Positions 2,478 to 38,856 of a DNA stretch of 39,100 bases are shown here, one piece after another. The notes beneath the pieces were generated by a model that was given only the letters and a program-made list of their open reading frames with translations, was not told the origin of the DNA and did not search any database. This DNA is from Escherichia phage 6925, in the sequence record ON637250.1, one strand, 5' to 3'. The translations under genes were made by a program, and so were the position numbers. The stretch's first letter is position 1, and each line of letters starts with the position of its first letter.

Positions 2478-2803
2478 TGAACAAGTCATACGGGATTAAT
2501 CTGGTACACTCTATGGACGCAGACATGCAAATGTTAAGCCTACTGGCTACCGGGTATCGTCACGGAACGTCAAGTCACTCCGCACGTCAACAGCAGGAGC
2601 GGGACCGGGTACTGCAAGCAAGACTCCGGGCTGATGGCCATATATACGAACTGATGAGTCTGGCGTATGGTGGACGACCAATCACTGACGATGGTAAACT
2701 TTTAGTCTCAGGCTGGAAGGCGATAGACCAACGGTCAACCATCAAGCACACGACTCATGGTGACTTCAGTCATCTTCACGCTAACCCACTGATATGCAAG
2801 TGA
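2477..2803 (+). CDS. Hypothetical early protein (108 aa), in the position T7 gene 0.7 occupies but not kinase-like
   Basis: ORF translationally coupled to the upstream gene (TAATG). No protein-kinase motifs recognised. Confidence 0.45.
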   Translation: MNKSYGINLVHSMDADMQMLSLLATGYRHGTSSHSARQQQERDRVLQARLRADGHIYELMSLAYGGRPITDDGKLLVSGWKAIDQRSTIKHTTHGDFSHLHANPLICK

Positions 2804-2808
2804 TTCTG

Positions 2809-2831
2809 ACTTAACTATCACTATAGGACTC
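2809..2831 (+). promoter_or_regulatory. Phage RNAP promoter, canonical copy, directly upstream of the RNAP gene
   Basis: ACTTAACTATCACTATA|GGACTC is identical in -17..-1 to the right-end promoter at 38496; +1 G at 2826. Confidence 0.6.
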
Positions 2832-2900
2832 AAGGTCTAAGACTCCAAGTGAAAGACCAAAGAGACTCTAAGTGAAAGACTAATAACAAGGACTTTAAGT

Positions 2901-5582
2901 ATGAGCGTCATCTCTATTGACAAGCACGACTTCTCTGATGTGTCGAACGCCATTGAGCCGTTTAACCTACTGGCTGACCACTACGGGCAAGACCTTGCAG
3001 TCAAACAGCTTCAGCTTGAGCACGAGGCATACACTGAAGGCGAGCGACGTTTCATCAAGAACCTTGAGAGACAGACTGAGCGAGGGGAACTGGCAGACAA
3101 TCAGGTCGCCAAGCCTTTGATGCAGACTCTGGTCCCTAAGATTGCGCAAGCCGTCAAGGAGTGGCATGAAGGTCCAGACGGGAAGCTGTCAACCTCTCGT
3201 CCAAGCGTAGCGTTCACCGTGTTGAGCACTGAAGAGAAGGCCGTCAAGGACCGCTCTATGCGCATCTCCTGTGAGTCCGCTGCGGTTATCATACTGAAGG
3301 TCATACTCTCCAAGCTGGTCAAGCCTGAAGGGATACCGATTACACCGATGGCCTCCGCGATAGGTCGCACACTTGAGGACGAAATCCGCTTCGGTCGCAT
3401 CCGTGACAAAGAGAAAGAGCACTTCAAGAAGGCGATAGCTGATAACCTGAATAAGCGGGCCGGGGCGTCATACAAGAAAGCCTACATGCAAGCGGTCGAG
3501 GCGTCCATGCTGGAGCAAGGCCAACTGGAAGATGCGTGGGGGACTTGGAGTCCTACAGAGGCTGTCCACGTTGGCATCAAGATGCTCGAGATTGTCATCC
3601 AGTCAACACAACTGGTCGAGCTTAAGCGGTACGGTGCTGGCAATGCAGCGGCTGATGTAGAGATGGTCCACCTGTCAGACTTCTGGGTCAAGAAGATGGC
3701 ACAACGAGGATTCAGCCTTGCGGGTATCGCTCCAGTCTATCAGCCTTGCGTCGTTCCACCTAAGCCGTGGACTGGTGTCGTAGGCGGTGGGTATTGGGCC
3801 AAAGGTCGAAGACCATTGCCACTGATTCGCTTAGGGTCTAAGTCTGCGGTATCACGCTACGAAGACGTGTATATGCCTGAAGTCTATGACGCTGTGAACA
3901 TCATTCAGAATACACCTTGGAAAGTGAACAAGAAGGTTCTGGAAGTGGTGAACATGGTCGAGAAGCTGAACAACACGCCTATTGATGACATCCCTCAGAT
4001 GGAACCGCTGAAGCCTGAGGACTATGCTGGTGAGACTGAAGAAGAACTCAAGGCATGGAAGAAGGCTGCTGCTGGTATCTATCGCCGCGAGAAGGCCAGA
4101 CAGTCACGAAGATTGTCACTGAGCTTTATCGTCAACCAAGCGAACAAGTTCTCTCAGTTCAAGGCCATCTGGTTCCCGTATAACATGGACTGGCGCGGTC
4201 GCGTCTACGCTGTGCCGATGTTCAACCCTCAGGGTAACGACATGCAAAAGGGTCTTCTGACTCTGGCAGTTGGTAAGCCTATTGGTGCTGATGGTTTCAA
4301 ATGGCTGAAGGTCCACGGTGCAAACTGCGCGGGTGTCGATAAAGTCACCTTCGAGGAGCGTATCAAGTGGGTGGAAGATAACCACGACAACATCATGGCT
4401 GCTGCCAAGGCACCGATGGATAGCATTGAGTGGTGGGGCAAGTTAGACTCTCCGTTCTGCTTCCTAGCGTTCTGCTTCGAGTATGCTGGCGTAATGCACC
4501 ACGGCTTGTCTTACTCCTGCTCGCTGCCGATAGCGTTCGATGGGTCCTGCTCTGGGATTCAGCACTTCAGCGCTATGCTTCGCGACCACATCGGTGGACA
4601 TGCAGTAAACCTGACGCCATCCGGTAAGGTCCAAGACATCTACCGCATCGTGTCTGACCGCATTGAGGAGGAGCTTAAAGTCCTACTGGTTAACGGTACG
4701 GACAACGAGATGGTAACTCACGAGGACAAGAAAACTGGTGAGATTACCGAACGTATCAAGCTGGGGACACGAGAGCTTGCCCGTCAGTGGCTGACCTACG
4801 GTATGTCACGAAAGGTCACTAAGCGTTCGGTCATGACTCTGGCCTACGGGTCGAAAGAGTACGGCTTCGCAGACCAAGTTTACGAGGACATCGTGATGCC
4901 AGCGATTGACTCAGGGTCTGGCGCTATGTTCACTGAACCAAGCCAAGCATCTCGCTTCATGGCTAAGATGATTTGGGAAGCTGTGAGTGTGACCGTAGTT
5001 GCTGCGGTTGACGCGATGAAGTGGCTTCAGGGTGCTGCCAAGCTGCTGGCTGCTGAAGTGAAGGACAAGAAGACTGGCGAAATCCTGAAGCCATGCCTTC
5101 CGGTACACTGGGTAACACCTGATGGTTTCCCTGTCTGGCAGGAATACCGCAAGAAGGATACCACTCGTCTGAACCTGATGTTCTTAGGGTCATTCAACCT
5201 TCAGCCTACAGTCAACAAAGGAACGAAGAAAGAGCTTGACAAGCACAAGCAGGAGTCAGGCATTAGCCCTAACTTCGTCCACTCACAAGATGGTAGCCAC
5301 CTGCGGAAGACTGTAGTCCACACTCACCGCAAGTATGGCGTGATGTCATTCGCAGTGATTCACGATAGCTTCGGGACCATCCCTGCTGACGCTGAGTATC
5401 TGTTCCGTGGTGTCCGTGAGACGATGGTCGAGACATACCGCGATAACGATGTGCTGCTTGACTTCTACGAGCAGTTTGAATACCAGCTTCATGAAAGTCA
5501 GCGCGACAAGTTGCCTGAGCTTCCGAAGAAAGGTAAACTGAATATCGAAGACATCTTGTCTTCAGACTTTGCATTCGCTTAA
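2901..5582 (+). CDS. 1: T7-like single-subunit DNA-dependent RNA polymerase
   Basis: 893 aa, collinear with T7 RNAP as recalled, including DGSCSGIQHFSAMLRD, HDSFGT and the C-terminal FAFA. RBS AAGGA. Confidence 0.97.
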   Translation: MSVISIDKHDFSDVSNAIEPFNLLADHYGQDLAVKQLQLEHEAYTEGERRFIKNLERQTERGELADNQVAKPLMQTLVPKIAQAVKEWHEGPDGKLSTSRPSVAFTVLSTEEKAVKDRSMRISCESAAVIILKVILSKLVKPEGIPITPMASAIGRTLEDEIRFGRIRDKEKEHFKKAIADNLNKRAGASYKKAYMQAVEASMLEQGQLEDAWGTWSPTEAVHVGIKMLEIVIQSTQLVELKRYGAGNAAADVEMVHLSDFWVKKMAQRGFSLAGIAPVYQPCVVPPKPWTGVVGGGYWAKGRRPLPLIRLGSKSAVSRYEDVYMPEVYDAVNIIQNTPWKVNKKVLEVVNMVEKLNNTPIDDIPQMEPLKPEDYAGETEEELKAWKKAAAGIYRREKARQSRRLSLSFIVNQANKFSQFKAIWFPYNMDWRGRVYAVPMFNPQGNDMQKGLLTLAVGKPIGADGFKWLKVHGANCAGVDKVTFEERIKWVEDNHDNIMAAAKAPMDSIEWWGKLDSPFCFLAFCFEYAGVMHHGLSYSCSLPIAFDGSCSGIQHFSAMLRDHIGGHAVNLTPSGKVQDIYRIVSDRIEEELKVLLVNGTDNEMVTHEDKKTGEITERIKLGTRELARQWLTYGMSRKVTKRSVMTLAYGSKEYGFADQVYEDIVMPAIDSGSGAMFTEPSQASRFMAKMIWEAVSVTVVAAVDAMKWLQGAAKLLAAEVKDKKTGEILKPCLPVHWVTPDGFPVWQEYRKKDTTRLNLMFLGSFNLQPTVNKGTKKELDKHKQESGISPNFVHSQDGSHLRKTVVHTHRKYGVMSFAVIHDSFGTIPADAEYLFRGVRETMVETYRDNDVLLDFYEQFEYQLHESQRDKLPELPKKGKLNIEDILSSDFAFA

Positions 5583-21197: not shown

Positions 21198-21299
21198 CCA
21201 AGAGAAAGACTCAAGGTTTCCCTATTACTTCAGTCCATACGGATTGGGCATCCAGTAAGTAATAAACTTTATCTTTCAATTGAATAGGAGAATTATCAT

Positions 21300-22349
21300 A
21301 TGGCAAACGTTCCGGGTCAGAAAGTTGGTACAGACCAAGGTAAAGGCAAATCTGGTTCCGACGCTCTGGCGTTGTTCTTGAAGGTCTTTGCTGGCGAAGT
21401 CCTGACAGCATTCACTCGCCGCTCTGTAACTGCTGACAAGCATATTGTCCGTACCATTCAGAACGGTAAGTCTGCTCAGTTCCCGGTCATGGGTCGCACC
21501 TCTGGTGTGTATCTGGCTCCGGGTGAGCGACTGTCCGATAAGCGTAAAGGTATCAAACATACCGAGAAAGTGATTACCATTGATGGTCTGCTGACTGCCG
21601 ATGTGATGATTTTCGACATTGAAGACGCGATGAACCACTATGACGTGGCTGGCGAGTATTCCAACCAGCTAGGCGAAGCGCTGGCTATCGCTGCTGATGG
21701 TGCGGTACTGGCTGAGATGGCTATTCTGTGTAACCTACCGGCTGCATCTGATGAAAACATCGCTGGTCTTGGCAAAGCGTCTGTGCTGGAAGTTGGTACT
21801 AAAGCAGACCTGAACACTCCGGCTAAGCTGGGTGAAGCAATCATCGGTCAACTTACCATTGCTCGTGCGAAGCTGACATCCAACTACGTTCCTGCTGGCG
21901 ACCGTTACTTCTACACCACACCGGACAACTACTCTGCAATCCTCGCGGCTCTGATGCCGAACGCTGCTAACTATGCTGCGCTGATTGACCCAGAGACTGG
22001 TAACATCCGTAACGTAATGGGCTTCGTGGTTGTTGAAGTTCCACACTTGACTCAGGGTGGTGCTGGGGAAACTCGTGGTGCCGATGGTATCACTATTGCG
22101 ACTGGTCAGAAGCACGCCTTCCCAGCTACTGCTACTGGTGATGTTAAAGTTGCTCTGGACAACGTTGTGGGCCTGTTCTCTCACCGTTCTGCTGTAGGTA
22201 CTGTTAAGCTGCGTGACTTGGCGCTGGAACGTGACCGCGACGTCGATGCTCAGGGCGACCTGATTGTTGGTAAGTACGCTATGGGTCACGGTGGTCTGCG
22301 TCCAGAAGCAGCAGGCGCACTGGTTTTCACAGCGGCGTCAGCGGGTTAA
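21300..22349 (+). CDS. 10A: Major capsid protein (10A)
   Basis: 349 aa; LALFLKVF.GEVLTAF, KSAQFPV.GRT, HTEKVITIDGLLTADV, AILAALMPNAANYAALIDPE, RSAVGTVKLRDLALER and KYAMGHGGLRPEAAGA match T7 gp10A. Confidence 0.97.
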   Translation: MANVPGQKVGTDQGKGKSGSDALALFLKVFAGEVLTAFTRRSVTADKHIVRTIQNGKSAQFPVMGRTSGVYLAPGERLSDKRKGIKHTEKVITIDGLLTADVMIFDIEDAMNHYDVAGEYSNQLGEALAIAADGAVLAEMAILCNLPAASDENIAGLGKASVLEVGTKADLNTPAKLGEAIIGQLTIARAKLTSNYVPAGDRYFYTTPDNYSAILAALMPNAANYAALIDPETGNIRNVMGFVVVEVPHLTQGGAGETRGADGITIATGQKHAFPATATGDVKVALDNVVGLFSHRSAVGTVKLRDLALERDRDVDAQGDLIVGKYAMGHGGLRPEAAGALVFTAASAG

Positions 22350-22612
22350 CGACCTTTAAGGCCCTCTCTACCGAGGGTCCTACCTTAGAGACGTATAGTT
22401 CTACGGTGGGAACCAGCTTGAAGGTTGACTTCCCGGAGCTTTCAGATGTGACCGACTGGTCGCTGCTTGATGTTACTACGCCTGATGGTGTTAGCTACTC
22501 CCGTAGAACCAACAGTCTCTACTTCAAGGCCACCTCTGGCGTGGAAGGTCTAGTGATTGTTGAGTATGACGGTTCGCCTGTGCGTTCCTTCAACGTATCT
22601 TTCACAAACTAA
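22322..22612 (+). CDS. 10B: Putative 10B-specific C-terminal extension reached by programmed -1 frameshift at the GGTTTTC slippery site (22322-22328)
   Basis: Heptamer G_GTT_TTC sits 7 codons before the 10A stop. The -1 frame is open for about 95 codons from the slip site to a TAA at 22610-22612, immediately before Tphi. Confidence 0.55.
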   Translation, partial: GFHSGVSGLTTFKALSTEGPTLETYSSTVGTSLKVDFPELSDVTDWSLLDVTTPDGVSYSRRTNSLYFKATSGVEGLVIVEYDGSPVRSFNVSFTN

Positions 22613-22615
22613 TTG

Positions 22616-22655
22616 AAACCCCTTGGGTGCCTTCGGGTGCTTGAGGGGTTTTTTG
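22616..22655 (+). terminator. Tphi-like intrinsic terminator for phage RNAP
   Basis: AACCCCTTGGGTGCCTTCGGGTGCTTGAGGGGTTTTTTG: a GC-rich hairpin plus T6 run, closely resembling T7 Tphi, directly after the capsid gene. Confidence 0.85.
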
Positions 22656-22669
22656 CTTAAGGAGGGAAT

Positions 22670-22759
22670 ATGGTCCTTATTTACACAGGGTTAGCACTAT
22701 TCGTTTTATTCTGGGCGTACCTTCTGTCCAGCTCACCGTCTAGTGCCTATGACCGTTAA
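22670..22759 (+). CDS. Possible mini-ORF (29 aa, one hydrophobic helix) between Tphi and gene 11
   Basis: AAGGAGGG then ATG, MVLIYTGLALFVLFWAYLLSSSPSSAYDR. The RBS and ATG sit where T7 has the gene 11 start; here an in-frame TAA separates it from the gene 11 ATG at 22772. Confidence 0.35.
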   Translation: MVLIYTGLALFVLFWAYLLSSSPSSAYDR

Positions 22760-22771
22760 GGAGTAAAACCT

Positions 22772-23338
22772 ATGGCTCAATACATTCCACTGAATGCTAA
22801 CGATGACTTAGATGCCATCAACGATATGTTAGCAGCTATCGGTGAACCAGCAGTCCTACAGCTTGACGAAGGTAACGCTGACGTCTCGAACGCTCAACGT
22901 ATCCTGCATCGTGTCAATCGTCAGGTCCAAGCTAAAGGCTGGAACTTTAACATCAACGAAGCTGCTGTCCTGACACCTGATGTCCAAGACAATAGGATTC
23001 GATTCCTGCCGTCTTACCTTCGGGTCATGACTGCTGGTGCTACCAGTTACTACAGCAACATGGGGGGCTATCTCTATGACCTGTCCACTCAGTCCACGAC
23101 CTTCACTGGACCAATTACAGTCGAACTGGTGGAGATGAAACCGTTCGCTGAGATGCCTGTAGTATTCCGTGACTACATCGTTACCAAGGCTAGCCGTGAG
23201 TTCAACGCTAAGTTCTTCGGTAGCCCAGAGTCTGAACTGTACCTTCGTGAGCAGGAAGCAGAACTCTACCAGCAGGTGATGGAGTACGAGATGGACACTG
23301 GTCGCTACAACATGATGTCCGACATCGGGAGGGACTAA
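22772..23338 (+). CDS. 11: Tail tubular protein A
   Basis: 188 aa; INDMLAAIGEP, QRILHRVNRQVQAKGWNFNI, YVTKASREFNAKFFG and MEYEMD match T7 gp11. RBS TAAGGAG. Confidence 0.93.
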   Translation: MAQYIPLNANDDLDAINDMLAAIGEPAVLQLDEGNADVSNAQRILHRVNRQVQAKGWNFNINEAAVLTPDVQDNRIRFLPSYLRVMTAGATSYYSNMGGYLYDLSTQSTTFTGPITVELVEMKPFAEMPVVFRDYIVTKASREFNAKFFGSPESELYLREQEAELYQQVMEYEMDTGRYNMMSDIGRD

Positions 23339-23565
23339 TGGCTAGTCACAACCTGAAGATTCACCGCCAGCACTTTGGTCCGGTACAACTAGGTCTAAAG
23401 ACAGCAGAGCTGAGACTTAACGACCGGGACTTTAATGTTGGCGACTGGCTTATCCTGAATGAGTGGGACAACGGGTATACTGGACAACAGGTAGCACGTA
23501 AGGTTGTCCACATTGCTGACGTTGGTGACATCGCTGAGGGATACGTCCTAATGAGTATGATTTAA
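23338..23565 (+). CDS. ASCH/PUA-like small protein (DUF3850-type signature) inserted between tail tubular A and B
   Basis: 75 aa; the H.LKI...F.PV..G.KT.E.R.NDRDF.VGDWL.L.EWD...YTG pattern fits the DUF3850/ASCH signature as I recall it. Start overlaps the gene 11 stop (TAATG). T7 has gene 12 directly after gene 11. Confidence 0.6.
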   Translation: MASHNLKIHRQHFGPVQLGLKTAELRLNDRDFNVGDWLILNEWDNGYTGQQVARKVVHIADVGDIAEGYVLMSMI

Positions 23566-29349: not shown

Positions 29350-32300
29350 ATGGCGACTCGTGGTATTCGCAATAACAATCCGGGTAACATCCGGGTAAGT
29401 AAGGACCAATGGGAAGGAATGACTGGAGATGATGGCGCATTCGTCATCTTTGATAGTCCAGAGTCTGGCGTCCGAGCTTTAGGTAAAAACCTGCTGTCCT
29501 ACGGTCGCCAAGGTTATGACTCCATCGAGAAGATTATCAACCGATGGGCACCTCCTAACGAGAACGACACTAAGGCTTATATTGACTCAGTGGTGGCTGC
29601 AACTGGTATTCCAGCTACCCAGAGTCTCGACCTATCGGACCCTGACACCCTGTCTTCTCTGGCTCAAGCTATCAGCTTCCATGAGACAGGCTCCCGGTAC
29701 GACCCTGAAGTCTATAAACAGGGAGTCGCACGAGCACTCAATGGCATTAGCCCAAAGACTCCACCAGTAAGCGCTAACGTATTTGACGCACTCACGGAAG
29801 GACTCAAGGCTAAACCTAAAGTAGCTCTGGGCGAGAACCTTCCGACCGCTGCTGGTCTAAACATTGAGGGTCAAGCACCTGAAGCTCCCAACGAATCGTT
29901 CGGTGAGATGTTCTATAAGTCTACTGGCGAGACCATGCAGGAACGAGAGGATCGCTCTACGTGGTTCGGTTTCGGTGCTGCTACAGAAGCTGAAGTGAAG
30001 AACTCTATGGTCGGCGTGGCTATCCGCGCTGGGCAGACAGAGGACTCACTTGATGTCATTGGCGATGTGTTCAACCCGACCCGCTGGAACAACCATAAGT
30101 GGACTCGTGAAGAGCTTGACCAGATTCGTAACGCTGGGGTTCTGCCTCAGTATTACGGAGTCATTACTGGTGGCTCCCCTCAGAACCTGACCGAGCTTAT
30201 TAACTTGGCGCTTGAGAACCAGAAGTTGGACCAAGAGAAGGCCAAGGCTGGGACTGGTGCTCAACTGGCGGCTGGTGTGATTGGTGTTGGCGTGGACCCT
30301 CTGACCTACGTTCCTATTGCTGGGCAGGTAGGTAAAGGTGGGAAGCTAGTCAACAAGATGTTCACTGTGGCTGCTCAGTCTGGTGCTCTGGCTGGGGCAT
30401 CCGAGATTGCTCGAACCTCAGTTGCTGGTGGGGACGCTCATGTGGCTGAGGCAATTATGGGCGGTGCTCTCTTCGGTGGGGGAATGACAGCTATCGGGGA
30501 CGCTATCGGCAAGGCCTTAGGCAAGTCAACCAACGAGTTCGCCGGACCAGCCACACGTCTGGAAGCCCGTGAGACTGCACGTAATGTTGATGGTCAGGAC
30601 CTGTCGCGTATGCCAATCCGTGAAGGAGAGGAGACCTTTAGTCATCAAGGTGTTAAGTTCGCAGACGTTCCGAACGAGCCGGGTAGTGTACGACTGGAAG
30701 ATGGTTCAATCCTGATTGGTGAGAATCCTCTGAACCCTAAGACACGTCAAGTCTTTGACGAAGTGATTGAGTCGGAACGTGCCGCTGCTGGTGTGAACCT
30801 TGGTGGACTTACCGAGATTGGCCTGAAGCTGCTTCGGTCTGAGAACCCTGAGATTCGTGGAGTAGCTGCTGACTTAGTGCGTTCACCGACTGGTATGCAG
30901 TCTGGGGCCTCAGGTAAAATCGGGACCACTGCGTCAGACGTATTCGAGAGACTTCGTGCTGTGGACCATCGGTTCTACAACGACATCGACGAAGCGGTTA
31001 CTGAGGCGCTCAAGGACCCATACTTCCAGACAGCATTCTGGCGAGACTCTGGCGCATTCCGTCAGGACATCTACCAGCGTGTGTCTATGGCTATTGAAGA
31101 CGGAAGTGGGAACCTGAAGGCTGAACTGACTCCGGGAGAACTGAAAGTCTATGACCTGCTGAAGAACCAGTTTGACGCCAAGCGTGAGATGATGGAGAAC
31201 CCGGCGATGTTTGGTCGTCCAGACGCTCAGTCTATCTTTCCGGGCAGCCGCTTCAAGGGAACCTACGTCCCGCATGTGTATAGCAACCAGATGAAGAAGC
31301 TGTACATCAAGGAGCTTGGGAGCCCAGAGGCGTTGCAGGAGGCCATCAAGAAGTCATGGTTGACCAGCTATGCGTCTCGACCTGAAGTCAAGAAACGCGT
31401 GGACGAGGCACTCTTAGAGGCTGACCCTACGTTGACCCCAGAAGGACTTGCTGCTGCGGTCGATAAGTACGCCAACGATAAGGCTTACGGTATCTCTCAC
31501 ACCGAGCAGTTCGAGCGTTCATCCGTAATGGAAGAGAACATCAATGGTCTGGTGGGTCTGGAGAACAACAGCTTCCTTGAGGCTCGTAACCTGTTCGATA
31601 GCGATATGTCAATCGTCCTACCTAACGGTCAGACCTTCAGTGTCAACAACCTGCGTGAGTGGGACATGGACAGGATTGTCCCGGCCTACAACCGTCGAGT
31701 TAATGGCGATATTGCTATCATGGCTGGTACAGGCAAGACCACGAAGGACATGAAGGACTTGGTTGAGACCCTGATGAACAAGGCTGGGGATGACGGTAAG
31801 TTGAAAGGTGAAGTATCTACCTTACGTGACACTTTGAAGATTCTAACTGGTCGTGCTCGACGTGATGGTGCTGATGATGCAGCCTTCGCTACCGTGATGC
31901 GCACAATGACAGACCTATCGTTCTTCGCTAAGAATGCCTACATGGGTGTTCAGAACTTAACGGAGATTGGGGGTATGCTGGCTCGTGGTAACGTTCGTGC
32001 AATGCTTCATGGAGTCCCAATTTTCCGTGACCTAGCCTTCCGTAACAAGAAGGTTGGGGCCTCAGAGATTAAGGACCTGCACAATGTTATCTTCGGTAAG
32101 GAACTTGATGACTCAATCCGTCCGTCTAAACAGGATGTCATTGACCGTCTGCGATCTTACAGTGACCTCGGTCGTGGTACAGCTACAGCTCTGGGGACTG
32201 CTAAGTATTACACTGGTGAACTTGCAGTACGCTCTCCGTTCACTAAAGTCCTCAACGGTACGACCAACTACCTGTTAGATGCTGGACGTCAGGGCTTCCT

Positions 32301-33237
32301 GTCTGACATCGTGGAGCATAGCCTGACTGGTAGTAAGCGTAAGTTCGATGACCGCTGGCTGAAGACCGCTGGTATCTCTGACGAGCAGTGGAAGGGCATT
32401 AAGTCCCTAATCCGTGAGTCAGTGACTCGTGGTCCAGACGGGAAGTACACCATCAAGGATAAGAAGGCGTTCAGTCAGGACCCAAGGGCTATGGACCTCT
32501 GGCGTATGGGTGACACCATCGCTGATGAGACCCTGCTCCGTCCCCACAAGCTGAGCAACATGGACGCCAAGGCTTATGGTCCGATAGCGAAGACTGTCTT
32601 GCAGTTTAAGAACTTCGTTATCAAGTCTATCAACGGTCGAACCATGCGTACCTTCTACAATGCCACCAAGAACAACCGAGCTATGGACGCTGCGCTGTCA
32701 ACGGTTATGTCTATGGGTCTGGCTGGAATGTACTACATGGCTCAGGCGCACATAAAGGCTTACGCTATGCAGGACGGTCGTGACCAAGAGTATCTGAAGC
32801 AAGCCCTTAACCCAACAATGATTGGCTATGCGGCGCTGTCCCGTAGCTCCCACTTAGGTGGTCCTCTTGGGGTCGCCAACATTCTGGGTGGAATCGCTGG
32901 GTATGAGGACACTAAGATGCTCCGCTCGTCAATCCTTCCGCGCTCACCTACCGAGAAGACGGAGAAGCCAATCGCCTTTGGTGCTGCTTCCAGTGGTCCG
33001 GTAATGAATGTGGTCGGCAACTTCCTTGAGCAGGTCCCGGCTTTCGGCTATGCTGCTAACGTTGGTGCTACGGCTTACAACTTGGCGGGATACCTCAAGG
33101 CTGATACCCGTGTCAACGAGCGAGACTACATGACCGGGATGTATAACACGTTCCGTGAACTTGTACCGAATGACCCGATTACCCAGAAGTTGCTGCTTGG
33201 AACGTTTGAGGAGCAGGGCATCCACATCAAGGACTAA
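29350..33237 (+). CDS. 16: Internal virion protein D (ejectosome core) with an N-terminal domain unlike the T7 gp16 N-terminus
   Basis: ATG at 29350 after TAAGGAG. From about residue 180 (STWFGFGAATEAEVKNSMVGVAIRAG...) to the C-terminus it is collinear with T7 gp16 (ARETARN, LVRSPTGMQSGASGK, GTYVPHVY, ILTGRARR, RAMDLWR, LVPNDP). The first ~130 aa carry GIRNNNPGNIR..W.G instead. Confidence 0.9.
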   Translation: MATRGIRNNNPGNIRVSKDQWEGMTGDDGAFVIFDSPESGVRALGKNLLSYGRQGYDSIEKIINRWAPPNENDTKAYIDSVVAATGIPATQSLDLSDPDTLSSLAQAISFHETGSRYDPEVYKQGVARALNGISPKTPPVSANVFDALTEGLKAKPKVALGENLPTAAGLNIEGQAPEAPNESFGEMFYKSTGETMQEREDRSTWFGFGAATEAEVKNSMVGVAIRAGQTEDSLDVIGDVFNPTRWNNHKWTREELDQIRNAGVLPQYYGVITGGSPQNLTELINLALENQKLDQEKAKAGTGAQLAAGVIGVGVDPLTYVPIAGQVGKGGKLVNKMFTVAAQSGALAGASEIARTSVAGGDAHVAEAIMGGALFGGGMTAIGDAIGKALGKSTNEFAGPATRLEARETARNVDGQDLSRMPIREGEETFSHQGVKFADVPNEPGSVRLEDGSILIGENPLNPKTRQVFDEVIESERAAAGVNLGGLTEIGLKLLRSENPEIRGVAADLVRSPTGMQSGASGKIGTTASDVFERLRAVDHRFYNDIDEAVTEALKDPYFQTAFWRDSGAFRQDIYQRVSMAIEDGSGNLKAELTPGELKVYDLLKNQFDAKREMMENPAMFGRPDAQSIFPGSRFKGTYVPHVYSNQMKKLYIKELGSPEALQEAIKKSWLTSYASRPEVKKRVDEALLEADPTLTPEGLAAAVDKYANDKAYGISHTEQFERSSVMEENINGLVGLENNSFLEARNLFDSDMSIVLPNGQTFSVNNLREWDMDRIVPAYNRRVNGDIAIMAGTGKTTKDMKDLVETLMNKAGDDGKLKGEVSTLRDTLKILTGRARRDGADDAAFATVMRTMTDLSFFAKNAYMGVQNLTEIGGMLARGNVRAMLHGVPIFRDLAFRNKKVGASEIKDLHNVIFGKELDDSIRPSKQDVIDRLRSYSDLGRGTATALGTAKYYTGELAVRSPFTKVLNGTTNYLLDAGRQGFLSDIVEHSLTGSKRKFDDRWLKTAGISDEQWKGIKSLIRESVTRGPDGKYTIKDKKAFSQDPRAMDLWRMGDTIADETLLRPHKLSNMDAKAYGPIAKTVLQFKNFVIKSINGRTMRTFYNATKNNRAMDAALSTVMSMGLAGMYYMAQAHIKAYAMQDGRDQEYLKQALNPTMIGYAALSRSSHLGGPLGVANILGGIAGYEDTKMLRSSILPRSPTEKTEKPIAFGAASSGPVMNVVGNFLEQVPAFGYAANVGATAYNLAGYLKADTRVNERDYMTGMYNTFRELVPNDPITQKLLLGTFEEQGIHIKD

Positions 33238-33255
33238 ACTATCACTATAGGAAAC
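33233..33255 (+). promoter_or_regulatory. Phage RNAP promoter (phi17-like), overlapping the gp16 stop
   Basis: ACTAAACTATCACTATA|GGAAAC; +1 at 33250. Confidence 0.75.
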
Positions 33256-33301
33256 TGGAGGCGCTACCATAGGTCTCCGTTTAAATCACAAAGGAGGCAT
33301 A

Positions 33302-35482
33302 ATGTCCACGATTACACAATTCCCTTCAGGAAACACTCAGTACAGGATAGAGTTCGACTACCTAGCCAGAACGTTTGTTGTTGTTACGCTGGTGAATAGC
33401 TCTAACCCTACCCTGAACCGTGTACTGGAAGTTGGTAGAGATTACCGATTCCTTAATCCAACGATGATTGAGATGTTGGCTGACCAATCAGGTTTCGACA
33501 TCGTTCGTATTCACCGTCAGACTGGAACTGACTTAGTGGTAGACTTCAGGAATGGCTCAGTGTTGACAGCTAGTGACCTGACCAATTCAGAGCTTCAGGC
33601 TATCCATATTGCAGAAGAAGGTCGAGACCAAACGGTTGACTTAGCGAAGGAATATGCCGATGCTGCTGGTAGCTCTGCGGGCAACGCTAAGGATAGCGAG
33701 GACGAAGCACGCCGAATCGCTGCGAGTATCAAGGCAGCTGGTAAAATTGGCTATATTACCCGTCGCTCCTTCGAGAAAGGCTTCAACGTTACAACATGGA
33801 ACGAGGTCCTGCTATGGGAAGAGGATGGTGATTATTACCGCTGGGATGGTACGCTTCCAAAGAACGTTCCCGCTGGTTCAACTCCTGAATCATCTGGTGG
33901 TATTGGGCTGAGTGCGTGGGTTAGTGTTGGTGATGCGTCACTTAGAGCAAACCTGTCTGATAGTGATGGCGCTAAATACATAGGCAGTGGAGAAAGGACA
34001 TTACTTGAGCACAACAATGATGTTTTGCACTCAAAAGACTTCCCAACACTGCAGGCAGCTATAGATGCATCTTTGCAAAAAAATGATCTACTGGTGTCTC
34101 CTGGAAATTATACTGAAAAAGTTACTATTGGAAACGCGCAGTTAAAAGGTGTTGGCGGGGCCACGGTACTAAAAACTCCGGCAGACTTTACAAACACTGT
34201 TCAGGTTAATTTAGCTACACCTCATTGGCAATTCCGCCATAGTGGTGGTTTTGCTATAGATGGTTCCGGGACAACCGGGGTCGTAGGTATTAGTTTTGAC
34301 CCGTCAGACCAATATTCCGGACGTCATAATTTTAGTGATGTATACATCCACAACATCAACAAGGCCATTCAGAAGCCTTCCGGGAACATCGGCAATACTT
34401 GGAGAAATATTGGGATATCTACGTGTGATTGGGGGTATTACGCGATTAGTGGCTCAGAGATGCATTGCGGGGCCGATACCCTCTACAATATCCACTTCGA
34501 TGGCATCTCCACCTATGCAGTCTATCTAGACGGCACTGTCGATAATGGCGGGGTTGGCGCATGGTGGCTTAAAGACTCCATTATTGAGGCTTCCGGAGGT
34601 GGCGGGATATACTTAAAAAGTAAATCGGGCGACTGTCCTACATCTCCATGCGGGGTATCCAATATATGGATGGAAGCGATCGCAACATCACCGGCTGTTC
34701 AGGTAGACGGCGTGGCGCAAAAACCGCGAGTTCTCAAGTTGGTAGACACAGCGATATTCTTTGCTGAGTATTCTTATCTCAACAACATCGAGCTAACCAA
34801 CTCCAACTTAGTAACTTATGGTTGCCGTTTTGACAACGCTGATGGCAATCAGGATATTGTCGTGGATGCACAAAGTACCATTGTAGCCCATGACGTGTAT
34901 TTAAAAGGCAGTTCTGGAAAGGACGTTATTGTGGAGTCCGTAGCATCGCAATCTGCAACGATAACTACCACAAACTTATCTCTGAGGGGCAACTTAACAA
35001 GAGGGAGAGTATTTAATACGCCGACAGGGAATAAATTAATGGCTATCACATTTGACTCAGGTAGCCATAATTTTGCTGGCAGCGGCACCGTTAACGGTTC
35101 GACTGTATCTGACGGACTTCACGCCGCTACATGTACCGAATTTTCATTCCCCGGAGCCGGTTTATATGAAATGGTAGCGACAAGAACAACCATTACATCC
35201 GGTAGATGGTACGTGTGGGGAGTTAACTCACGCCTACAATCTGGCTCGGCGGATATTAGTATAACGTCAGGTATTACCATGGGTAGTGTTTACACAAAGC
35301 AGGGGGAGTGGATTAGCACTTTCGGTGTAGGAAAGGCATCTACCACTGGCACTGTAGCGCTATACGTTTCCACAGGAGGAGGTTCGGGAGCTACGGTCAG
35401 ATTCAGTGACTTTTTCATCGCTGAGTTTACGACGCAAGCTCAGGCTTTAGCTTTCGCCAATTCAAGGATGTCGTTATCATAA
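33302..35482 (+). CDS. 17: Tail fibre/tailspike: T7 gp17-like N-terminal adaptor fused to a beta-helix-like C-terminal domain (putative glycan depolymerase)
   Basis: N-terminus (FDYLARTFVVVTL, VDFRNGSVLTASDLTNSELQAIHIAEEGRD) matches the T7 gp17 tail-attachment domain. From about 33960 onward codon usage shifts to A/T-ending codons, and the protein has repetitive Gly/Asn/Thr/Ser-rich strands typical of pectate-lyase-fold spikes. RBS AAAGGAGG. Confidence 0.85.
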   Translation: MSTITQFPSGNTQYRIEFDYLARTFVVVTLVNSSNPTLNRVLEVGRDYRFLNPTMIEMLADQSGFDIVRIHRQTGTDLVVDFRNGSVLTASDLTNSELQAIHIAEEGRDQTVDLAKEYADAAGSSAGNAKDSEDEARRIAASIKAAGKIGYITRRSFEKGFNVTTWNEVLLWEEDGDYYRWDGTLPKNVPAGSTPESSGGIGLSAWVSVGDASLRANLSDSDGAKYIGSGERTLLEHNNDVLHSKDFPTLQAAIDASLQKNDLLVSPGNYTEKVTIGNAQLKGVGGATVLKTPADFTNTVQVNLATPHWQFRHSGGFAIDGSGTTGVVGISFDPSDQYSGRHNFSDVYIHNINKAIQKPSGNIGNTWRNIGISTCDWGYYAISGSEMHCGADTLYNIHFDGISTYAVYLDGTVDNGGVGAWWLKDSIIEASGGGGIYLKSKSGDCPTSPCGVSNIWMEAIATSPAVQVDGVAQKPRVLKLVDTAIFFAEYSYLNNIELTNSNLVTYGCRFDNADGNQDIVVDAQSTIVAHDVYLKGSSGKDVIVESVASQSATITTTNLSLRGNLTRGRVFNTPTGNKLMAITFDSGSHNFAGSGTVNGSTVSDGLHAATCTEFSFPGAGLYEMVATRTTITSGRWYVWGVNSRLQSGSADISITSGITMGSVYTKQGEWISTFGVGKASTTGTVALYVSTGGGSGATVRFSDFFIAEFTTQAQALAFANSRMSLS

Positions 35483-35626
35483 AAACAACCTCAGCCGAAT
35501 CGGGTTATTTATCATCAGAACGGTATTGAATCATCGAAGGTTGTGGAGGTAGAGGCTAACTACACGTTGACCAACGTATGATAACAACTTTTGGTCACGG
35601 ACGACCCGCTTTAAACTGGAGGTTTT

Positions 35627-35821
35627 ATGATTGCGTTAGACTTCAAGAATGAGGTCCTCAAAGCCTCGCCTATCGTCGGGACCGCTGCGGCTGATGGTGC
35701 CAGTCGGTTCTTCTTTGGGCTAACGCTCAACGAATGGTTCTACGTCGCTGCTATCGCGTACACCGTGGTGCAGATTGGCGTCCTAATTTACAAGACGATT
35801 AAGAGCGGAGGTAAGACATGA
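35627..35821 (+). CDS. 17.5: Class II holin
   Basis: 64 aa; IVGT..AD...R.FFGL.LNEWFYVAAIAYTVVQIG matches T7 gp17.5 as recalled. Confidence 0.9.
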   Translation: MIALDFKNEVLKASPIVGTAAADGASRFFFGLTLNEWFYVAAIAYTVVQIGVLIYKTIKSGGKT

Positions 35822-36641: not shown

Positions 36642-38401
36642 GTAAAGACTTAGTGGCGCGTCAGGCGCTAATGACTGCACGTATGAAGGAAGACTTCGTG
36701 TTCTTCATCTTCGTTCTCTGGAAAGCACTAAGCCTTCCGGTTCCAACCCGCTGCCAGATAGATATGTGTAAGAAGCTGGCTGCTGGTGATAATCGCCGCT
36801 TCATCCTTCAGGCTTTCCGTGGTATTGGCAAGTCATTTCTGACCTGTGGCTTTGTGGTCTGGAAGCTATGGAACAACCCAGACTTGAAGTTCATGATTGT
36901 GTCGGCCTCAAAGGAGCGAGCCGATGCTAACTCCATCTTCATCAAGCGAATCATCGACCTCATGCCTCAGCTTCAGGAGCTCAAACCTAAGCAGGGACAG
37001 CGAGATGCGGTTATCAGCTTCGACGTTGGTCCCGCCAAGCCAGACCACTCACCTTCGGTTAAGTCCGTTGGTATCACTGGTCAGTTGACTGGTAGTCGTG
37101 CTGACATCCTGATTGCTGATGACGTGGAGGTTCCGAACAACTCAGCGACTCAGGCTGCCCGGGACCGTCTGTCAGAGCTTGTGAAAGAGTTCGACGCTAT
37201 CCTGAAGCCGGGAGGTACAATCATCTATCTGGGTACTCCTCAGAACGAGATGACCCTATACCGTGAGCTGGAAGGTCGTGGGTACACCACTACTATCTGG
37301 CCCGCTCGTTATCCACGCGACAGGAAGGACTGGCAGTCTTACGGCGACCGTCTGGCTCCTATGCTTCAGGCAGAGCTGGAAGAGGACCCTGAGTCCTTCT
37401 ACTGGCGTCCGACTGATGAAGTACGCTTCGATGATACGGACCTGAAGGAACGTGAGCTGTCCTACGGTAAAGCTGGCTTCGCTCTACAGTTCATGCTTAA
37501 CCCGAACCTGAGTGATGCCGAGAAGTACCCTCTGAAGCTCCGTGACCTTATCGTAGCCGACTTGGACCCAGCGTCCAGCCCAATGGTCTACCAATGGTTA
37601 CCGAACCCTCAGAACAAGCGTGAGGACGTTCCTAACGTTGGACTCATGGGTGACTCGTACCACACGTATCAGACTGTAGGTTCTGCCTTCAGTTCTTACA
37701 CCCAGAAGATTCTGGTCATTGACCCTAGTGGTCGTGGTAAGGATGAGACTGGTTATGCGGTACTGTACCAGCTCAACGGCTACATCTTCGCTATGGAAGT
37801 TGGTGGTATGCGTGGTGGGTATGAAGACTCTACGCTGGAAGCACTGGCTAAGATTGGCCGTAAGTGGAAGGTCAACGAATACGTCATTGAGGGTAACTTC
37901 GGTGATGGTATGTACCTTGAGCTATTCAAGCCTGTAGCGGCCCGTATACATCCTGCTGCTGTAACTGAAGTGAAGAGTAAGGGTCAGAAAGAACTCCGCA
38001 TCTGTGACGTTCTGGAGCCTATCATGGGGTCTCACCGACTTATCATCAACGCTGCTGCTATCGTCCAAGACTACCAGTCGGCCTCTGATAAGGATGGTGT
38101 TCGTAACCCTATCTACTCTCTCTTCTACCAGATGACACGTATCTCTCGTGAACGTGGAGCCTTGGCACACGATGACCGACTTGATGCGCTGGCTATCGGT
38201 GTACAGTTCTTCGTTGAGTCTATGGCTAAGGATGCCAACAAAGGCGAACGTGAAGTCACTGAGGAGTGGCTGGAGGAACAGATGGAGAACCCACGGAAAG
38301 GCTTCGAGTCCATCCACACTGAGTTCTGGGACAATGGGGTCCGGGTAACTCACGATACGGACGACGAGCTGGGACTAGGGTCATACGTTACGTTCCACTA
38401 G
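36638..38401 (+). CDS. 19: Terminase large subunit (ATPase/nuclease)
   Basis: TTG start with AAGGAGG 7 nt upstream. [82 protein letters not shown] and [11 protein letters not shown] match T7 gp19. Confidence 0.96.
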
Positions 38402-38495
38402 CTGAATGAATAACTATAGGCGAAAACTGAGTTAATAAGCAGTTAGTAACCTATAGTTACTACCAGTCTAACCTACTGTTTTACAAGGAGTTTGG

Positions 38496-38518
38496 ACTTA
38501 ACTATCACTATAGGGAAG
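38496..38518 (+). promoter_or_regulatory. Phage RNAP promoter near the right end (phiOR-like)
   Basis: ACTTAACTATCACTATA|GGGAAG; +1 at 38513. Confidence 0.75.
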
Positions 38519-38697
38519 ACCCCCGGTTACTTATAGTATTACTATAGTGAATATACATATGCAGACTTTATGCAAGACCTTAGGAGGCAGACTCCGAGTT
38601 CTTACCTAAGGCTTGCACCGATGGGAGGAGGTGATATTAATCATAATACCTCCAATACAGATAGTCACAGACCATAGATACAGGAGGTATGTAGCAT

Positions 38698-38856
38698 ATG
38701 GAAAAGACCAAAGCTGTACTTAAAGCTCTGGCGACCAATCGAGCTACATACAGGTTTCTTGCTGCTGTTCTACTTGCTGCTGGCGCTACTGCTGGAAGTC
38801 AGTGGGTCGGGTGGGTCGAGACTCTCGTATGTTCTCTGGTGTCTGAGTGTCGTTAA
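38698..38856 (+). CDS. gp19.5-position small hydrophobic protein (52 aa)
   Basis: AGGAGG sits 9 nt before the ATG; MEKTKAVLKALATNRATYRFLAAVLLAAGATAGSQWVGWVETLVCSLVSECR. Below the 60-aa track cutoff. Confidence 0.5.
   Translation: MEKTKAVLKALATNRATYRFLAAVLLAAGATAGSQWVGWVETLVCSLVSECR

Follow-up and report, generated by a model that had tools for sequence, protein, structure and literature searches.

A 2023 study (PMC10408124) described how receptor-binding domains are exchanged among Kayfuna-, Kaguna-, Gamaleya-, Kutter- and P22-like viruses, and homologous tailspikes of the pectin-lyase-like type are known from Kayfuna-, Kaguna-, Gamaleya- and Lederbergviruses, where they sit on varying anchors and are flanked by conserved DNA motifs (PMC11990801, PMC10408124). 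A β-helix-like ("pectinesterase", K5-lyase-like) domain common to the phages LM33_P1, Golestan, ES17 and myPSH had been noted in 2021 (PMC7885116), and O16-specific tailspikes were shown in 2025 to have the same architecture (PMC11990801). We analyzed the tailspike gene of Escherichia phage 6925 (sequence record ON637250.1) within the whole stretch of 39,100 nucleotides (nt), hereafter the window, which is a ~39-kb T7-like phage genome with a GC content of 50.0% and all large open reading frames (ORFs) on the + strand. An initial annotation, made from the sequence alone, had described the gene as a T7-type adaptor fused to a foreign β-helix-like domain. Our analysis supports the core of this reading in substance and confirms the observation in part; the finding of a modular tailspike is correct but already known, and the gene is present many times in GenBank. 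We consider it likely that the gene product is the sole receptor-binding tailspike of an LM33_P1-type Kayfunavirus, with an exchangeable β-helix cassette that would bind, and probably cut, the O25b O-antigen.

33302..35482, + strand: tailspike / tail fiber gene (gp17 equivalent), 726 amino acids (aa) (ORF list; nt identity; phrog_27367).

The first 25 kb of the window share 96-97.5% identity with the Escherichia phages HC12, LM33_P1 and relatives (genus Kayfunavirus). By megablast, the tailspike gene is 99.8% identical at the nt level to that of HC13, 99.3% to the annotated LM33_P1 tail fiber gene and 99.0-99.2% to those of five further Kayfunaviruses, and the 726-aa protein matches phrog_27367 "tail fiber protein" over its full length. 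As in LM33_P1, the gene lies between a gp16-like internal virion protein and the holin, and the order is that of T7-like phages, with the tailspike as the last tail gene, gp16 before it, and holin and terminase after it. The neighboring 2.9 kb of gp16 (30402-33301) are 94.8% identical to LM33_P1.

Alignments show that the gene is a mosaic with two defined junctions. Megablast splits it, at nt ~647/677 of the gene, into two segments with different sets of relatives: more than 100 podovirus records, including Kayfunaviruses of other specificities, match only from nt 1 to ~643-658 of the gene at 94-97.5% nt identity, while 13 records among the matches listed (~44-45-kb phages, mostly labeled vB_EcoS, and including the Kagunavirus Golestan) align only over nt 677-2174 (86-88.5%). 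When four DNA sequences were aligned, near-identity to the Kayfunavirus IMEP24 stopped at ~33943 and similarity to Golestan started from ~33955. This is within ~15 nt of position 33960, where a module boundary had been proposed; the boundary is real, and the evidence for it is homology rather than composition. Among the proteins, Golestan and a 644-aa P22-type tailspike both share the sequence from SDSDGAKYIGSGER (aa ~219) onward, and the junction corresponds in position to a conserved end-of-anchor motif reported previously (PMC10408124). On the 3′ side, the cassette reaches the stop codon, and likeness to other Kayfunaviruses resumes at ~35527.

33944..33958, + strand: 5′ recombination junction between anchor and cassette, at ~aa 215-219, ...GDASLRANL/SDSDGAK... 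(DNA alignment; protein comparisons agree).
33956..35479, + strand: exchangeable receptor-binding cassette, aa 219-726, shared across phage types.
35483..35526, + strand: 3′ junction, a non-coding stretch specific to the cassette type (alignment).

Upstream of the 5′ junction, two domains were recognized in the anchor.

33329..33646, + strand: T7-type tail-attachment (adaptor) domain, aa 10-115 (PF03906 Phage_T7_tail, 59.6 bits versus a cut-off of 25.2).
33752..33934, + strand: Tail_spike_N domain of the TSP1/Gp66 type, aa 151-211 (PF18668, 70.3 bits versus a cut-off of 25).

The first ~220 residues had been assigned as a whole to the tail-attachment domain of T7 gp17. This holds for aa ~6-116 (PF03906; PDB 7boz), to which residues 12-122 of the T7 gp17 N-terminus (PDB 7boz, 8dsp and 8e4g) align with E-values of 3e-16 to 1.7e-17, but aa 151-211 belong to the Tail_spike_N family PF18668. 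The latter domain stands just before the receptor-binding domain and is conserved in IMEP24 and other Kayfunaviruses; among PDB sequences, CBA120 TSP1, TSP3 and TSP4 and G7C gp63.1 match aa 145-230. The anchor as a whole (aa 1-225) is near-identical to the tailspike in the solved tail of phage E1004 (PDB 9vvr, E 6.6e-135), a Kayfunavirus tail structure determined in situ that holds 18 chains of near-identical anchor, consistent with six trimers per virion. The PDB matches to 9vvr, 7boz and the CBA120 tailspikes are confined to aa 1-233. The N-terminus of our full-length structure model was unreliable (predicted local distance difference test score, pLDDT, below 50 for aa 1-152), as no more than two sequences in its alignment have this anchor, and the model was not used for the anchor.

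A T7-family phage of a genus named after K1F, with a T7-type N-terminal adaptor, might also carry a T7-type distal fiber (coiled-coil shaft plus tip) or a K1F-type endosialidase with its self-cleaving chaperone. We give this virtually no credence: the T7 gp17 structures match only aa 6-116, Pfam yields no Peptidase_S74 or sialidase match, and the predicted fold is a β-helix followed by a β-sandwich. Both candidates were rejected on the extent of the PDB matches and on this fold.

The fold was obtained by modeling the cassette as a monomer with 38 homologues (pLDDT 89.6; predicted template modeling score, pTM, 0.86). Three elements were delimited in the model.

34079..35026, + strand: predicted right-handed parallel β-helix, aa ~260-575 (short strands, ~28-residue rungs in the model).
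35030..35431, + strand: predicted C-terminal β-sandwich resembling carbohydrate-binding modules (CBMs), aa ~577-710 (long strands, pLDDT 93-98).
35435..35464, + strand: predicted terminal α-helix, aa 712-721, within the motif F..AEF.T...A.AF.N.R (DSSP).

The prediction of a right-handed parallel β-helix agrees with the domain proposed in the initial annotation, and the T7-type fiber fold lacking a β-helix, which had been named beforehand as the contrary outcome, is not what we found. For the β-sandwich, Foldseek returned local matches to CBM22 (4xup/4xuo, TM-score by target, TMt, 0.56-0.59), a porphyran-binding CBM (8xmz, TMt 0.61) and CBM16 (2zey). The protein itself gives no match to PF13229 Beta_helix or PF12708 at E ≤ 1; among 65 homologues, 10 match PF12708 and 9 match PF13229, which suggests a link to the pectate-lyase-like superfamily that is transitive, through homologues only.

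We then looked at residues conserved within the cassette. The conserved acids of the β-helix are D392, D425, E429 and E458. Across the 65 relatives, E458 is the sole invariant acidic residue, M387-H388 is near-invariant down to ~20% identity, and F709, A715 and N720 near the C-terminus are invariant or nearly so. In closer sets of 26 and 38 relatives, D392 (in MHCGAD), D425, D511 and D522 are invariant and E429 (in KDSIIE, together with D425) is near-invariant. Going by conservation, E458 together with D392, D425 or E429 are candidate catalytic acids, and the conserved acidic residues are the ground on which polysaccharide cleavage is proposed. It could be argued that the β-helix is a non-catalytic adhesin that binds polysaccharide without cleaving it. 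We hold this to be improbable, as the invariance of E458, the near-invariance of M387-H388 and the retention of D392, D425 and E429 in closer relatives are what would be expected of an active site lying in a groove, and nearly all characterized podovirus β-helix O-antigen tailspikes are enzymes.

The cassette family is large and spans very different phages. A search of 1.84 billion representative proteins, clustered at 50% identity, gave 302 clusters for the family at E ≤ 1e-3 and 73 at the stricter E ≤ 1e-30. Nearly all of the clusters listed have the cassette at their C-terminus, preceded by N-terminal parts that vary greatly in length. Its aa identity to the phage 6925 cassette is 88.6-91.3% in Kagunaviruses, 80-83% in P22-like prophages, 64% in the Kuravirus ES17, 40% in Bp4-type phages and 39% in IMEP24. 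In prophages it follows a head-binding anchor of the P22 type and in a Kuravirus an anchor of 500 aa, with further anchors elsewhere, and it forms the C-terminal end of the 1021-aa ES17 tail fiber and of Bp4-type fibers. Anchor families recognized among the 65 relatives are Head_binding (6), Tail_spike_N (5), Phage_tail_fib (2), Phage_T7_tail (1) and Mtd_N (1). The prophage tailspike (644 aa, with a P22 head-binding domain) is part of a gp7/gp20/gp16/ant/tailspike/integrase prophage; the locus adjoins yfdC-mlaA-fadL of E. coli, a flank that shows only that the host is E. coli. Copies of the P22-like prophage cassette exist in read-archive assemblies of E. coli.

IMEP24, a phage of different specificity, carries a 39%-identical cassette of equal length on the same Kayfunavirus anchor (L004, 3501-5684). 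It keeps the linker motif DGAKxIGSGxR after the junction (window 33965-33998) as well as the C-terminal motif F..xEF.T...A.AF.N.R (window 35420-35479). Judged from these alignments, divergence within the cassette family is internal, and both edges are kept. We also came across a 68.5%-identical cassette at 2480-5230 of MZ417522.1, a 25-kb record named "Mycolicibacterium phage J1", marked UNVERIFIED and classed in the Microviridae. Its gene order (capsid, a 513-nt and a 753-nt gene, then a long tail fiber gene) matches that of ES17, and the record looks like a mislabeled fragment of an E. coli Kuravirus.

The composition of the gene had been read as an abrupt shift to A/T-ending codons at 33960, unlike the rest of the genome. 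GC content at third codon positions (GC3) is indeed low, at 0.436 for the gene versus 0.556 in the 45 other called genes, the lowest of all large genes. This is not confined to the cassette: the anchor is equally atypical, with GC3 values of 0.450 and 0.431 for aa 1-220 and aa 221-726, respectively (Fisher p=0.68). No single change point within the gene reaches significance (permutation p~0.49 for the best one), on which ground we rejected the abrupt step. The sequence details of the initial annotation fared better, with the quoted peptide NYTEKVTIGNAQLKGVGGATVLK present at aa 269-291, the A-run caaaaaaatgatc at 34076, and Gly/Asn/Ser/Thr making up a fraction of 0.379 in aa 221-726 (the C-terminal 506 residues) versus 0.240 in the remaining proteome. 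What the gene does contain is a local trough.

33872..34336, + strand: local GC3 trough, codons 191-345, GC3 0.30 (sliding windows; permutation).

The trough is lower than all 294 100-codon windows in other genes and was reached in 7 of 300 within-gene permutations. Amino-acid content does not explain it, because the GC3 expected from it is 0.53. Past the trough, GC3 climbs to 0.5-0.6 and then settles near 0.40-0.45. In total GC the region is less distinctive (0.427-0.43 in 300-nt windows at 33951-34300), with ~20 other genome windows equal or lower. The trough begins ~90 nt upstream of the junction, within the conserved anchor. Golestan, a siphovirus, and the P22-like prophage have the same succession of trough, peak and plateau in their copies of the cassette. 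The profile thus recurs in three carriers, showing that the composition pattern is inherited with the cassette. Golestan, in addition, has a real GC3 step, from 0.545 in the anchor to 0.438 in the cassette. Cassette composition is nearest to that of P22-like prophage tail genes (GC3 0.33-0.48), which hints at an origin in the temperate-phage pool.

Taken at its word, the compositional argument of the initial annotation would mean that the C-terminal module was transferred recently, from a donor of lower GC, into an otherwise native gene. A cassette GC3 of 0.43 against 0.556 for the genome, a trough unmatched elsewhere in it, the step in Golestan and the likeness to P22-like prophage tail genes would all fit, and we regard such a transfer as a possibility on the doubtful side. 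The compositional argument for mosaicism is weak, because the anchor is just as atypical, the junction shows no step and the trough starts inside the anchor. The gene is nonetheless mosaic, as the alignments show; that the acquisition was recent is not demonstrated, since the nearest copy outside the genus is only 88.5% identical at the nt level, a difference of 11.5%. Moreover, within the LM33_P1 group, identity is higher in both parts of the gene (anchor 99.4%, cassette 99.3%) than in gp16 next to it (94.8%). The tailspike gene as a whole thus appears to be under stronger constraint than gp16, or to have been shared among these phages at a later time.

We next considered the receptor, for which a capsule or another polysaccharide had been suggested. 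A polysaccharide is plausible, and the evidence favors the O25b O-antigen over a capsule. The host strain LM33 is of sequence type 131 (ST131) and serotype O25b:H4. The Kayfunaviruses 22664BS1, 101136BS1 and 101118UKE1 carry the tailspike gene at 99.1-99.2% nt identity and the Kagunavirus 22664BS2 carries the cassette at 86.4%, and all four were isolated on O25b-positive strains (DSM22664, DSM101118 and DSM101136); 22664BS1 and 22664BS2, which differ in morphology, come from the same strain, DSM22664. LM33_P1 reportedly infects only O25b strains, across sequence types, and O25b lipopolysaccharide is said to interfere with it. Carrier phages infect O25b strains, and this link between cassette and O25b is an association, from which O25b binding is suggested.

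If O25b is the substrate, its structure bears on the chemistry. The O25B repeat unit consists of two glucose, two rhamnose (one of them 2-O-acetylated) and one N-acetylglucosamine residue, and holds no uronic acid (PMC9516715); β-elimination by a lyase is therefore chemically excluded on that substrate, and an endoglycosidase would be the expected activity on O25b.

Several points weigh against an O25b-binding and O25b-cutting tailspike. Searches of Pfam, NCBIfam and PDB sequences left the cassette unmatched, also when a profile was used: the profile returned only the anchor-side region (9occ) and chance CDK1 matches among PDB sequences, and NCBIfam gave chance-level matches only. Our literature search found no enzymatic or binding data for this tailspike, and other papers citing LM33_P1 held no receptor data. 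The cassette is absent from the 5,426 complete E. coli genomes searched (near and distant modes, at blastn sensitivity), among which there are many ST131 genomes. Because of this, the O-type of prophage hosts is unusable as independent evidence. Among 185,579 species-representative genomes the only relative, a 29%-identical cassette in a metagenome-assembled genome, was uninformative. The record of phage vB_EcoP_LNA5 (MZ311861.1, gene at 21285-23465, 98.9% nt identity) names the rough strain K-12 MG1655 as host. This does not fit a strict dependence on O-antigen, unless the entry reflects a propagation host or a choice of metadata, and no paper explaining it was found in the literature search. 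Finally, heparan sulfate binding was reported for the ES17 homologue (64% identical), which was modeled on K5 lyase (PMC7885116); this leaves room for a capsule-like ligand.

The cassette might accordingly be a depolymerase or binder of a capsule (K-antigen), for example a K5/heparosan-like one as is common in extraintestinal pathogenic E. coli, with the O25b link arising through clonal linkage. We judge this unlikely. The carrier phages come from several O25b-positive strains that are independent of each other, tailspike types in the genus track the glycan (K1F with K1, CLB_P1 with O104, Bas105 with O16; PMC11990801), and, as for ES17, ligand specificity can differ at 64% identity. In a bolder extension, to which we assign little probability, the cassette would have a dual glycan specificity, as an O25b hydrolase that also binds mammalian heparan sulfate like the ES17 homologue. 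It would found a glycoside-hydrolase family so far unclassified, in which sequence comparison detects no relative with a solved structure. If true, dual-glycan binding would position LM33_P1-type phages on the mucosal surfaces where ST131 lives.

For an O25b-directed tailspike, we propose the following mechanism. A genus-conserved anchor, made of a T7 gp17-type tail-attachment domain (aa ~1-130) and the Tail_spike_N domain (aa ~145-215), is connected by a short flexible linker to the exchangeable cassette (aa ~219-726). By homology with the solved E1004 tail, six presumed trimers would decorate the tail. The β-helix would bind the O25b O-antigen of E. coli ST131-type hosts and would most likely cleave it, by a putative hydrolase chemistry. 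The six trimers would thereby bind and shorten the O-antigen and bring the tail to the outer membrane, as tailspikes of P22, Sf6 and CBA120 do; such an O-antigen-shortening model has been drawn for Kayfunavirus (PMC11990801). The cassette would be a mobile specificity module, swapped by podo-, sipho- and temperate P22-like phages that share a host surface, through recombination at the conserved sequences flanking it, and its odd codon composition travels along.

The tailspike decides which E. coli the phage kills, and the association of this cassette with the pandemic, multidrug-resistant ST131-O25b lineage makes it useful for phage therapy, host-range engineering and O25b diagnostics. The gene is also a clean example of one specificity module common to podo-, sipho- and temperate phages. 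These points have already been published for LM33_P1, ES17, Golestan and analogous O16/O-serogroup tailspikes.

We also searched the surroundings of the gene for regulatory elements. A promoter-like site lies directly upstream.

33238..33251, + strand: phage-RNA-polymerase promoter-like site ACTATCACTATAGG, directly upstream of the tailspike gene (T7-like consensus).

The window holds 11 matches to ACTATCACTATAGG, all on the + strand, against a chance expectation of 0.2 (positions 2814, 6135, 8016, 8890, 11268, 17307, 20145, 21180, 25962, 33238 and 38501). Given the T7-like consensus, these are probably the promoter set of the phage RNA polymerase of this Kayfunavirus. Downstream of the gene, we claim no terminator: a hairpin at 35491-35529 is no stabler than shuffled sequences (z = -0.2), and between 35483 and 35626 a consensus scan found no terminator-like site. 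The intergenic region from the tailspike stop to the holin start is flanked by an inverted repeat of 24 nt, imperfect at 71% complementarity (35461-35484 and 35623-35646), which is probably due to chance. Antisense ORFs inside the tailspike gene, which are short and lie within conserved coding sequence, were likewise taken as chance, and Rfam, tRNA and repeat scans around the gene gave nothing relevant. Elsewhere, the right end of the genome has its lowest GC content at 38350-38750 (0.39-0.41 per 300 nt), a stretch that directly follows the large terminase gene and lies beside the last promoter-like site at 38501.

Among known systems, the closest is the tail fiber of LM33_P1 (YP_009324518.1; Kayfunavirus LM33P1), which is the same gene in length, genomic position and genus. 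The two differ at 15 nucleotides, and the window represents a separate isolate with a backbone ~96-97.5% identical. The gene is also found in HC13, HC12, vB_EcoP-22664BS1, -101136BS1 and -101118UKE1, at 99.0-99.8% over all 2181 nt.

Kagunavirus tail fibers (VB_EcoS-Golestan ATS93254.1, phiEc3/4, 22664BS2 and fEg-Eco06) have the same cassette, starting at "DGAK" and running to the C-terminus, and its GC3 profile is the same. They differ in being siphovirus proteins, in having a 155-aa anchor that is unrelated save for a Tail_spike_N-type stretch, and in the position of the gene, after that of the central tail fiber. The tailspike of P22-like E. coli prophages (P0027 and relatives, 644 aa) shares the cassette at 80-83% aa identity and lies where tailspikes classically do, at the end of the structural genes and beside the integrase, but the phage is temperate, the anchor is a PF09008 head-binding domain, and GC3 is lower still (0.37). 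ES17-TFP of the Kuravirus ES17 (QPL11059.1), a phage that also infects ST131, has a homologous C-terminal cassette at 64% aa identity; it differs in its 1021-aa length, its long unrelated N-terminal part and the heparan sulfate binding shown for it on glycan arrays.

More distant are the O-antigen-cleaving tailspikes CBA120 TSP2, TSP3 and TSP4, Sf6, P22 and HK620, whose β-helices are only 9-16% identical, without a sequence-detectable relation; they act on different O-antigen substrates, and their catalytic residues are not transferable. Finally, gp17 of T7 and of K1F, the latter in the same genus, share with the phage 6925 tailspike the N-terminal attachment domain (PF03906), the gene position and the virion architecture. 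T7 gp17 then continues as a coiled-coil shaft and tip and K1F gp17 as a sialidase with a self-cleaving chaperone, neither of which is present in the protein encoded in the window.

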